A DNA stretch of 64,000 bases, from NCBI RefSeq assembly GCF_013167455.1, contig NZ_CP038328.1; one strand, 5' to 3'. This document shows, piece after piece, positions 33,001 to 36,000 of the stretch. Position 1 is the first letter of the stretch, and every line of letters starts with the position of its first letter. The position numbers are program-made. This stretch comes from Escherichia coli O157:H7. GTDB lineage: Bacteria; Pseudomonadota; Gammaproteobacteria; Enterobacterales; Enterobacteriaceae.

Positions 33001-36000
33001 CGGAAGGCATCGCGGGTGAGGGGAGTGCTTCAGATAGCGGTGACCCCACACCGGACAGCGACATGATGATGTAAGCATGCGTCAGGGACCATCGGTGTGT
33101 GCCGGTGGTCTTTTTTATTGTTGTGAGCTTCCGGATTGCGGGAGACGGGGTATGTACCAGATGGAAAAAATCACAACAGGTGTGTCATACACCACGTCAG
33201 CGGTGGGAACGGGCTACTGGTTCCTGCAGTTGCTGGACAGGGTTTCCCCGTCTCAGTGGGCGGCAATAGGCGTGCTGGGGAGTCTGCTGTTTGGGCTGCT
33301 GACATATCTGACGAACCTGTATTTCAAGATTAAAGAAGACCGGCGTAAGGCGGCACGGGGAGAGTAAGCTGATGAGCAGGAAACTCCGCTATGGTTTATC
33401 GGCTGCCGTTCTGGCGCTGATTGCCGCAGGTGCTTCTGCGCCTGAAATCCTCGACCAGTTTCTGGATGAAAAGGAAGGTAACCACACCACAGCATACCGT
33501 GATGGTGCGGGTATCTGGACCATCTGCCGTGGAGCCACCCGGGTGGATGGTAAGCCTGTTATTCCTGGCATGAAGCTGTCGAAGGAAAAATGCGACCGGG
33601 TTAACGCCATTGAGCGTGATAAGGCGCTGGCATGGGTGGAGAAAAACATCAAAGTGCCGCTGACCGAACCCCAGAAAGCGGGGATCGCGTCATTCTGTCC
33701 GTACAACATTGGTCCCGGTAAGTGTTTCCCGTCGACGTTTTACAGACGAATTAATGCAGGTGATCGAAAAGGTGCCTGCGAAGCTATTCGCTGGTGGATT
33801 AAGGACGGTGGCAGAGACTGCCGTATTCGTTCAAACAACTGTTACGGTCAGGTATCCCGTCGTGACCAGGAGAGCGCGCTGGCGTGCTGGGGAATCGACA
33901 GATAAGAAGAATATTTTGCTGAAAAATGAGGTTTGCTTACATGGACGGATAACACGAAATCCTGCAAATTGGCAAAATGTAAGTGAATAAAGTCAAAACA
34001 GTTGTTTAACACTCAGGCACCGTAATGATGCCTTTGTCATTTCTGCGCATCTCACGCGCATCTCACAACACAGAACCTTTCAGGATGACCCTTGAGGATA
34101 CCGGTTTGGCTGTCGGTGCCTTTCTGTGGGCTGGATTCCTGTGAGACAAGGTTCATCACTAAAAGGAAATAACCGATGAATATGATGGCCGTGCCGTTTC
34201 ACGGCAACTCTCTTTATGTAGTTAACCATAATGGCGAACCATACGTTCCCATGAAACCTGTCGTTGCGGGGATGGGGCTGGCCTGGCAATCACAGTTGGC
34301 TAAGTTAAGACAGCGTTTTGCGTCAACTATAACGGAAATCGTTATGGTTGCTGAGGATGGGAAACAACGCAATATGGTGTCCATGCCACTTCGAAAACTT
34401 GCCGGCTGGCTACAAACCATTAATCCCAACAAAGTAAAACCCGAAATCCGCGATAAGGTCATCCGGTATCAGGAAGAGTGCGACGATGTTCTTTACGAGT
34501 ACTGGACGAAGGGTTTTGTCGTTAATCCCCGTAAAATGAGCGTGATGGAAGAACTCAACCAGGCTTGTGCTGACATGAAACGGGATAAAAACATTGCCAG
34601 TGTGTTTGCTACCGGGCTGAATGAGTGGAAACAGGTTAAAGCCGCGCATGTATCAAAAATCCGTACGCTGGTAAATGAAGCGAATATGCTGATTGATTTT
34701 GTCCTGGCTGATACAGGCAAAGGGAAAATAACAAAGGCGGATTGATGGGGTGGCTAATGATATCAGATAAACTCATAACGCTGGTGAAGAGCCTCTGTGT
34801 ACTTGTCGGCATTTCATTTTTAGTCATGCTGGTTGCCATTTTCTTTTCCACCGCCTGGCGAGTCCTGACGTTATCGGGACTGGTGGGGTGAAAGAGAGAT
34901 GAACCGTGTTCTGTGTGTGGTGATTATTGTCCTGGCGGTTGGCTGTGGTGCGCTGTGGCTGGCAACAAACCATTACCGTGACAACGCGCTCACCTACAAA
35001 GCGCAGCGCGATAAAAAAGCCAGAGAGCTGGAACAGGCGAATGCCACCATTACTGACATGCAGGTGCGCCAGCGTGATGTTGCTGCGCTCGATGCAAAAT
35101 ACTCGAGGGAGTTAGCCGATGCGAGAGCTGAAAATGAAACTCTGCGTGCTGATGTTGCCGCTGGTCGTAAGCGCCTGCGGATCAACGCCACCTGCTCCGG
35201 TACCGTGCGTGAAGCCACCGGCACCTCCGGCGTGGATAATGCAACCGGCCCCCGACTGGCAGACACCGCTGAACGGGATTATTTCATCCTCAGAGAACGG
35301 TTGATGACAATGCAGAAGCAGCTGGAAGGGGCACAGGACTATATCCGCACTCAGTGCCTGAACTAAGTTTTGCTGATGCGCCGTATCGTCGCCGTATTCC
35401 TGCATTAACAGAGACCGCAGCCCGACAGGGAGACTCCTCTGCGAGAGTGTGCGGGGATAATCAAAAACGATACACACCGGGGTTTACCGCGTTAACGGAG
35501 CGCGGTGTTGTCCCCTCATAGTCGCCAGTCCGGTGCGATGGTGGAAGAAACTGGATTTTGTTGCAAATGATAACCATTATCATTTTGCGGGTCCTCCTGG
35601 TGGGGTGGGCCTGAACACGGGGCGGGCGGGCGCGGAAAAAGGCGCATTTTTGTGATTTTATCGTCATCATCATCATGATGGTAACTTGTTGTTTTTAATG
35701 CTGTTAGTATTAAAAAGATGATGATTGTGGTTGTTTTTTGTTCGACATCTTTATATGGCGGCATTTCTTTACAAAAAAACAGAGTCACTTCTGTTCTGCG
35801 GTTTATGTGGAGGGATGTAAATGGACGGCGAGCTGAAAAATATGAAGTTAAATATTAATCAACTGGCAGCCCTTTCAGGTCTGCACCGGCAGACTGTTGC
35901 CGCCAGAATGGCGGATGTTCCTCTTGCACCAGGCAGTAATGAAAAGAAAAAACTGTATCTCCTGACGGATTTGATAACTTCGTTGCTGGAAAAACCACCA

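Follow-up and report, generated by a model that had tools for sequence, protein, structure and literature searches.

The window, a stretch of 64,000 nucleotides from Escherichia coli O157:H7 (contig NZ_CP038328.1), contains a lambda-like prophage that is 99% identical to VT1-Sakai (Sp15). The genes follow the order Rz (stop at 35366), small terminase (35821–36297), large terminase (36294–38417) and portal gene (38626–40128), and a 454-bp intergenic gap (35367–35820) separates the Rz stop from the small-terminase ATG at 35821. The probable cos site described here lies in this gap, downstream of the lysis cassette and directly upstream of both terminase genes, within the late operon. The features of the gap and of the two genes that follow it are:

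35367–35562, no strand: left arm, non-coding spacer that follows Rz and lies upstream of cos, on the packaging-termination side
35563–35585, no strand: palindrome GCAAATGATAACCATTATCATTT, similar to a Fur box and set 3 bp upstream of cosQ
35589–35595, plus strand: cosQ, GGGTCCT, packaging-termination signal by lambda homology
35617–35635, plus strand: cosN, ACG/GGGCGGGCGGG(C)GCGG, where the large terminase is predicted to make its staggered nicks (the slash marks the predicted left nick)
35636–35663, plus strand: A5/T5 segment AAAAAGGCGCATTTTTGTGATTTTATCG, between cosN and R3, in the position of lambda I2
35664–35677, plus strand: R3-like putative small-terminase binding site TCATCATCATCATG, bp 45–58 from the predicted left end
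35682–35694, minus strand: I1-like putative IHF site AAACAACAAGTTA (minus-strand reading), between R3 and R2
35717–35725, minus strand: R2-like site GATGATGAT, which repeats R3 in inverted orientation
35732–35749, plus strand: T-tract and R1-like site TGTTTTTTGTTCGACATC, with R1 at 35740–35749 as a weaker direct copy
35821–36297, plus strand: small terminase (TerS), Nu1-like, Pfam DUF1441 (E = 3.8e-48)
36294–38417, plus strand: large terminase (TerL), gpA family, Pfam GpA_ATPase (E = 1.8e-81) and GpA_nuclease (E = 6.2e-84)

The portion from about 35563 to 35750 aligns base for base with the phage lambda cos region, and its subsites (cosQ, cosN, A5/T5, R3, I1, R2 and R1) follow the lambda order and orientation. 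The 64-kb window holds a single occurrence of the composite motif GGGTCCT-N18–28-CGGGGCGG, where shuffles predict 0.00, and the predicted left end lies 202 bp from the small-terminase ATG, compared with 191 bp in lambda. We therefore read ~35563–35750, with a probability of roughly 0.9, as the lambda-type cos site of an Sp15 (VT1-Sakai)-type lambda-like prophage. Overall it is an ordinary cos of a well-known kind, slightly unusual in the length of its cosN core and in the Fur-box-like palindrome. The VT1-Sakai GenBank record has zero features annotated beneath the matching region, and the consulted passages of the study of prophages in O157 Sakai (PMC2669165) describe no cos for Sp15.

The first-pass annotation had proposed a candidate packaging site from position, and the direct homology to lambda cos together with the adjoining terminase genes bears this out. 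The extent it gave, 450 bp, holds only in part: the functional core is limited to ~35563–35750, and the left 190 bp are spacer DNA that accompanies the Rz module. The GC-rich run that it singled out (cacggggcgggcgggcgcgg, 35616–35635) is cosN, and the 60-nt segment at 35590–35649 has 70% G+C. Its palindrome (catcatcatcatgatgg, 35665–35681) overlaps R3, and its A/T-rich blocks are found in the 120 nt after that segment, at 27–32% G+C. The description of the interval as ORF-poor is right only roughly, as three mechanically called ORFs (55, 71 and 90 aa) run across it.

The small-terminase gene is preceded by a Shine–Dalgarno sequence (GGAGG, 35808–35812), and its product matches the PHROGs family phrog_141 ('terminase small subunit') at E = 6e-66 and the Nu1 family phrog_57 at E = 1.8e-10; reciprocally, lambda Nu1 matches phrog_141 at E = 5.6e-8. 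Direct profile comparison with Nu1 by hhalign is weak (probability 17.8%), and homology to Nu1 is supported instead by these reciprocal PHROG matches. The AlphaFold model is of medium confidence (pLDDT 71) and has an N-terminal strand–helix–helix–wing–helix arrangement. A Foldseek search with this model yielded no match at E ≤ 0.001; the best matches, all with E > 0.08, were MerR-type winged helix-turn-helix (HTH) proteins and the 56-residue chain 7lw0_A, which comes from an entry on viral DNA-packaging motors. Sequence search of the PDB gave only weak matches. Taken together, the hhalign, PDB and Foldseek results are consistent only with a winged HTH. A literature search on DUF1441 returned nothing relevant.

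The large terminase bears on the type of site, for which cos and pac had both been suggested. A headful (pac) site would share with cos its position upstream of the terminase genes, and this position is the one observation in its favour. The gpA family of the large terminase, the base-level homology to lambda cosQ and cosN, and the fixed ends of related phage records at the homologous site all argue for cos over pac, and we find a headful site scarcely credible. The deposited genomes of cdtI and Tritos end in ...CACG and start with GGGCGG, which corresponds to the homologous ACG/GGGCGG position, although the Tritos paper contains no description of termini mapping. Record ends of mEp460 and mEp213 were rejected as evidence of termini, because these records begin at the small-terminase ATG and not at cos. 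A full-text literature search for the cohesive-end strings retrieved only unrelated papers, on eukaryotic G-rich sequences.

Among 23 diverged relatives, conservation peaks on the cos subsites and collapses past 35750, with cosQ as the top conserved block. cosQ is identical to lambda cosQ at 7/7 positions, lies 24 bp before the predicted nick (23 bp in lambda) and is retained by most relatives. Homology with Stx1a phages that carry lambda cos stops exactly at cosQ. The left half of cosN with its left flank, ACGGGGCGG, is identical to lambda at 9/9 positions, and the left nick is predicted between 35619 and 35620.

The right boundary of cosN is uncertain. The distance from ACG to CGCGG is 11 nt here, 12 nt in lambda, mEp460 and Fels-1, and 10 nt in most close relatives, and core lengths among close relatives take values of 7, 10, 11 or 12 nt. 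Within the sampled loci of the close clade, the commonest form is one base shorter than that of the window. The CG dinucleotides that flank cosN, described as highly conserved at a spacing of 12 bp (PMC4669245), are 13 bp apart in the window, so a canonical 12-nt stagger with the conserved CG flanks cannot be placed exactly. By hand count, a 12-nt spacing suits the commoner sister form GGGCGGGCGGCG/CG, with 10/16 bp symmetric as in lambda, while the window cosN fits this 10/16-bp symmetry only at a spacing of 13 nt.

These irregularities could indicate a decayed, non-functional cos in which the extra G relative to the commoner GGGCGGGCGGCGCGG form spoils nicking, so that packaging would proceed only through recombination or helpers. 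The variation in core length, the window form one base above the commonest and the 13-bp CG spacing fit such decay. So do data on Sp15, for which PMC2669165 reports head-gene (morphogenesis) defects and transfer of a marker only by Sp5/Sp15 chimeric phages; packaging could thus depend on helpers. However, the same study reports DNase-resistant packaged Sp15 DNA after mitomycin C, and both Stx2a phages of the O145:H28 strain 12E129, whose cosN variant is identical to that of the window, are packaged into DNase-resistant particles (PMC8112680). Further, the 11-nt class is seen against no fewer than three sequence backgrounds (GGGCGGGCGGG, GGGCGGGTCGG and AGGCGGGTCGG), whose small terminases range from 100% to 78% identity, and hence does not represent one recent lesion; of 543 matching E. 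coli records, 269 contain the exact 81-nt core. On this evidence decay is improbable.

With the site read as a lambda-type cos, the length variation may have another meaning. A tentative and rather unlikely proposal is that the cosN core in this EHEC/STEC prophage clade is a slippage-prone (GGGC)n-like tract. If the 10-nt and 11-nt forms are both cut efficiently, cohesive ends would be 11–13 nt long, and thus non-canonical or variable; alternatively, the nicks would have separate anchors, one strand being positioned from the left half-site and the other from cosB. The length polymorphism is a minor experiment of nature on where terminase places its nicks, and a non-canonical stagger, if true, would bear on how lambda-type terminases measure the stagger.

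To the right of cosN, the A5/T5 segment aligns with lambda GGGTTTTCGCTATTTATGAAAATTTT and is highly conserved in relatives. The script used for R repeats recovers R3, R2 and R1 of lambda as a positive control. R3 is kept at the same position in Fels-1, mEp213 and mEp460-type relatives. R2 is a perfect 9-nt complement of 35666–35674, 42 nt apart, and the inverted R3/R2 arrangement recurs in Fels-1-type relatives. The T-tract with R1 forms the strongest conservation block of cosB, and R1 itself is degenerate in the window (TTCGACATC versus the R3 core TCATCATC). Relatives carry direct copies of the R motif at R1, namely TTCATCATC (Fels-1 type), TTCACCATC (mEp213) and TTCATCAC (mEp460 type), and all three R sites are clear in Fels-1-type relatives.

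The I1-like site agrees with the IHF consensus WATCAANNNNTTR at 8/9 specified positions, is the sole match with at most one mismatch within the interval, lines up with TAACTTAATGTTT of lambda I1 and is retained among relatives. Matches to the consensus are not enriched in the window (56 found, 52 expected); hence only position and homology to lambda I1 count in favour of this site.

About 1,960 E. coli genomes have the left arm in their Rz modules at 92–97% identity, among them phages with true lambda cos and Nu1. The variable sites of the arm are spread over the codon positions as 15/11/10, that is, with no codon periodicity. A 55-aa plus-strand ORF in the left arm was rejected as coding for this reason and because no Pfam match was obtained. 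Rfam assigns no family at an informative score to the left arm. The Fur-box-like palindrome is a perfect 9-nt inverted repeat that matches GATAATGATAATCATTATC at 16/19 positions, the sole such match in 64 kb (0.01 expected). A homologue, GATGATAATCATTATC, is present in lambda, and a literature search on a Fur box at cos produced nothing relevant.

The structure of the interval might alternatively serve a product, either a small protein (the 90-aa minus-strand ORF at 35516–35788) or a regulatory RNA. PGAP calls the 90-aa ORF a hypothetical protein in some genomes. It has no Pfam or PHROG match, is missing in distant relatives that retain the cos layout, and its frame shifts across the cosN indel between relatives with 100% identical small terminases; it was rejected as coding. 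With regard to RNA, 35589–35820 folds with z = −2.6 and Rfam gives a weak PrrF match (E = 0.5). The folding signal is attributable to the inverted repeats R3/R2 at the DNA level, and the PrrF match, at 22.8 bits versus a gathering score of 90, to the Fur-box-like palindrome. For the left arm, folding does not exceed that of shuffled sequence (z = −1.15). A small RNA was rejected, as Rfam analysis of 34500–36500 at E ≤ 1 gave only the sub-threshold PrrF. Within 35000–36100, no terminator-like site was found, and the one promoter-like site (35655–35684, minus strand) is at chance level (1 found, 1.1 expected). A product-encoding interval is very improbable.

The analysis shows the homology to lambda, the layout of the subsites with its conservation, the identity of the terminase genes and the record ends of related phages; by analogy with lambda, we infer the binding and nicking steps as well as the exact right-hand nick. 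Once induction has led to concatemers, the small terminase would bind cosB at R3 (35664–77), the inverted R2 (35717–25) and R1 (35740–49), and IHF would bend the A/T-rich I1 segment (35682–94), bringing R3 toward R2. The resulting complex would place the gpA-type large terminase on the G/C-rich cosN (35617–35635), where it would make staggered nicks, the left one past ACG (35619/35620), and leave a G-rich 5′ cohesive end of ~12 nt. DNA would then be pumped rightward into the prohead with the terminase genes leading, and the terminal cut at the next cos of the concatemer would be signalled by cosQ (35589–95), cosN and the A5/T5 segment.

The gain is mainly one of annotation, as it concerns the packaging site of Stx1 (Sp15-type) and related long-tailed Stx2 prophages. 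This site is unannotated in the GenBank records checked, and a spurious 'hypothetical protein' runs across it in some RefSeq genomes. In addition, knowledge of cos and of the element that sets its specificity (TCATCATC-type R sites, paired with a DUF1441 small terminase) helps to predict, for an EHEC cell, which terminase can package which defective prophage. Such predictions matter for how stx and effector genes spread.

Compared with lambda, the window has the same cosQ, left cosN half with flank (ACGGGGCGG), subsite order and gpA-family large terminase, and its I1 core is homologous (TAACTT..TGTTTTTA). In contrast, the R sites of lambda are CGTTTCC and those of the window are of the TCATCATC type, which implies that packaging specificity differs. 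The cosB of the window is the more compact one, with R3, R2 and R1 at bp 45, 98 and 121 (lambda: 51, 107 and 153). A further difference is the right half of cosN, with one base fewer between ACG and CGCGG, and Nu1 is only ~20% identical to the small terminase of the window.

Other relatives are found among phages with DUF1441-type small terminases. Comparison with terminase-matched phages, which the first-pass annotation had suggested, reveals the same cos layout in 80 IMG/VR loci that encode relatives of the small terminase (tblastn, 55–100% to the window protein). Small-terminase identity is 49–58% for Fels-1, mEp460, mEp213 and phi458, and 36% for cdtI. All of these, and Tritos, share cosQ, the ACG/GGGCGG left end and the AAAAAGGC..TTTTTG segment. 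Fels-1 and mEp213 further have the CATCATCATC R3 in common with the window, as well as an inverted R2 of GATG type; the R3 of the mEp460 type, TCATCACC, is related. In these phages ACG and CGCGG are separated by 12 nt, and the spacer between cosQ and cosN measures 22 bp, compared with 11 nt and 24 bp in the window. In cdtI and Tritos, cosQ, cosN and I2 are shared, but cosB is unrelated and the N-terminus of the small terminase is divergent.

By literature description, the site in the window can be likened to the cos of Gifsy-1, described by the Feiss laboratory, which has an R3-I1-R2-R1 layout. Sp4 and Sp14 belong to the same host pool (O157 Sakai), and their putative cos were also recognised through alignment with lambda; according to the legend of Fig. 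S8, cos sequences as well as Nu1 proteins were aligned (Asadulghani et al., 2009; PMC2669165), and our comparison follows that description. The Stx1a phage Stx1_9793 carries the same arm from Rz to cosQ, fused to true lambda cosN-cosB-Nu1-A. How phages exchange packaging modules is illustrated by the mosaic joints, one at cosQ and one at the border of cosN and cosB.

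The 454-bp interval between the Rz stop codon (35366) and the ATG at 35821 very probably holds a lambda-type cos site with its own small-terminase specificity. The first-pass annotation had placed a candidate cos/pac site here, and homology to lambda cos together with the cognate terminase genes supports a lambda-type arrangement (cosQ-cosN-cosB). The landmarks it had named are present: the GC-rich run cacggggcgggcgggcgcgg at 35616-35635, the palindrome catcatcatcatgatgg at 35665-35681, and the A/T-rich blocks, with G+C dropping sharply from 70% at 35590-35649 to 27-32% across 35650-35769.

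The 158-aa small terminase matches Pfam DUF1441 (3.8e-48) and phrog_141 'terminase small subunit' (6e-66), and also phrog_57 (1.8e-10), to which lambda Nu1 belongs (1.3e-76; reciprocal Nu1 match to phrog_141, 5.6e-8). The 707-aa large terminase carries GpA_ATPase and GpA_nuclease domains, and a gpW-like adaptor and lambda-type portal lie downstream. The closest prophage, VT1-Sakai (Sp15), is 99.6% identical across the interval and 99.0% identical over 73% of a 24-kb stretch. In 933W and VT1-Sakai, as in the lysis cassette here, an antirepressor (Ant)-like ORF sits between R and Rz:

33372-33905: endolysin gene R
34176-34745: Ant-like ORF, 189 aa, within the lysis cassette, between R and Rz
34742-34891: 49-aa ORF, after the Ant-like ORF and just ahead of Rz
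35119-35304: Rz1, embedded in Rz

The interval was aligned by MAFFT with the lambda end junction (right end followed by left end) and with its counterparts in Fels-1, mEp460, mEp213 and phi458, and showed collinear homology with all of them. The aligned elements include, in order, the palindrome GATAA(C/T)CATTATC, GGGTCCT of lambda cosQ (identical at 35589-35595), a 22-24 bp spacer, CGCGG with an A/T-tract segment after it at the lambda I2 position, a CATCATCATC block at the R3 position and TAACTT..TGTTTTTA at the position of the IHF site I1. Within the 64-kb window the combined cosQ...cosN pattern is present just once, the expectation being 0.00.

For cosB, a script was used that looks for direct or inverted repeats of 9 nt and tolerates a single mismatch; as a positive control, it recovered lambda R3, R2 (inverted) and R1. 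In the window it finds the R3 9-mer and its R2 complement, listed here with the IHF match from the consensus search:

35666-35674: R3 9-mer ATCATCATC, inside R3, which spans bp 45-58 counted from the predicted left end
35682-35694, minus strand: predicted I1-like IHF match AAACAACAAGTTA, between R3 and R2
35717-35725: R2 GATGATGAT (bp 98-106), perfect complement of the R3 9-mer

Fels-1-type relatives have a third, direct copy (TTCATCATC) at bp 118-126, whereas the window has a degenerate GTTCGACATC (35740-35749) at this R1 position, just after a strongly conserved T-tract. No other site inside the interval fits the IHF consensus with one mismatch or fewer; with 56 matches across the window against 52 expected, the consensus alone is uninformative, and the weight of the prediction lies in position and homology to lambda I1. 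The window cosB reads as R3-I1-R2-R1 with R2 inverted, the layout described by the Feiss laboratory for lambda, phi80, 21 and Gifsy-1 (PMC9026076).

The small-terminase alignment, used to scan IMG/VR, retrieved 80 loci (tblastn identity 55-100% to the window protein), all of which keep the cos layout. Across 23 representatives with under ~93% shared DNA identity, conservation is highest at cosQ, cosN, the A5/T5 segment, R3, I1, R2, and the T-tract with R1, and collapses from 35750 to the ribosome-binding site, pointing to a functional core at about 35563-35750 (~190 bp, as in lambda).

The number of nucleotides between the conserved ACG and CGCGG of cosN varies by group; the window's clade also has a 24-bp cosQ-to-ACG spacer, versus 22-23 bp elsewhere.

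Nucleotides between ACG and CGCGG
12 nt: lambda, Fels-1, mEp460, mEp213, cdtI
10 nt: most close relatives of the window (GGGCGGGCGG)
11 nt: window, VT1-Sakai, 12E129 (GGGCGGGCGGG)
11 nt: two further backgrounds (GGGCGGGTCGG, AGGCGGGTCGG)
7 nt: a single locus

From the left nick, the 10-nt form reads GGGCGGGCGGCG|CG, which makes a regular 12-nt end flanked by CG; by hand count 10/16 bp are symmetric, equal to lambda. The window form has one extra G, so its CG flanks lie 13 bp apart, and its overhang may be 11, 12 or 13 nt. Of 543 matching E. coli records, 269 contain this exact form, which also occurs in packaged phages and is therefore probably functional. Both Stx2a phages of O145:H28 strain 12E129 have the identical cosN form and match the window at 99% across cos; they were packaged in DNase-resistant particles (PMC8112680). 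After mitomycin C, Sp15 DNA was excised, replicated and found in such particles, but Sp15 has head defects and its marker was transferred only via Sp5/Sp15 chimeras (PMC2669165). Judged by their deposited records, cdtI (NC_009514) and Tritos (OV696610) start with GGGCGGGAGCGTCGCGGAAAAAGG and end in ...CCTGCCACG, which exactly follows the convention of lambda for the homologous position.

Across the cosQ-cosN spacer and cosN, the top strand at 35602-35630 carries five tracts of three or more G (GGGGTGGG...GGGGCGGGCGGG); lambda has no comparable run within the stretch aligned. Given the 7-, 10- and 11-nt variants among near-identical relatives, the region looks slippage-prone, and formation of a G-quadruplex is conceivable.

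Three mechanical ORFs (55, 71 and 90 aa) run across the interval, and the longest is annotated in some O157 genomes:

35516-35788, minus strand: 90-aa ORF, PGAP/RefSeq hypothetical protein WP_001302882.1

It has no match in Pfam or PHROG. An indel in the GC run puts its C-terminal half in another frame in relatives with a 100% identical small-terminase protein, and the ORF is absent from more distant relatives that retain the remaining layout. We rejected it as a gene on these three grounds; with its frame unconserved among near-identical relatives, WP_001302882.1 is almost certainly an annotation error.

From its left end through the final cosQ base (229 nt), the interval is 94% identical to Stx1a-converting phages, which continue past cosQ with genuine lambda cosN, cosB, Nu1 and A. 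CP-1639 and 1720a-02 (the latter compared over its match only) have cosQ, cosN and the A5/T5 segment in common with the window; after A5/T5, CP-1639 switches to a different cosB and then to a small terminase with 78% identity to that of the window. In cdtI and Tritos, cosQ, cosN and I2 are those of the mEp460 type. Their cosB (CATTTCCATGGCGGCGGCA...) is unrelated, and their DUF1441 small terminase differs at its N-terminus (MSNVSGIGDAYYW...), which suggests a natural packaging-specificity swap inside one small-terminase family. Recombination joints inside cos were seen at window 35595/35596 and ~35655-35690. The conserved subsites thus serve as crossover points that connect the lysis module with those of cos and terminase. 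The arm on the left (35367-35562) is part of the Rz module; within it, codon periodicity, a terminator and an Rfam family were absent, and RNA structure was insignificant (z = -1.15).

One further element lies about 3-7 bp upstream of cosQ:

35563-35585: Fur-box-like palindrome GCAAATGATAACCATTATC, near-consensus (16/19 positions)

It is the sole match of this kind in the 64 kb, with 0.01 expected, and a search on a Fur box at cos found nothing in the literature collection covered. Lambda has the homologous GATGATAATCATTATC at the equivalent place, whereas mEp460 and Tritos have GTCAGGCTGTCAGGCTG instead. This palindrome and the length-polymorphic cosN are minor curiosities. The cos site lacks annotation, or carries a wrong hypothetical-protein annotation, in public records; it is an ordinary representative of a well-described kind.
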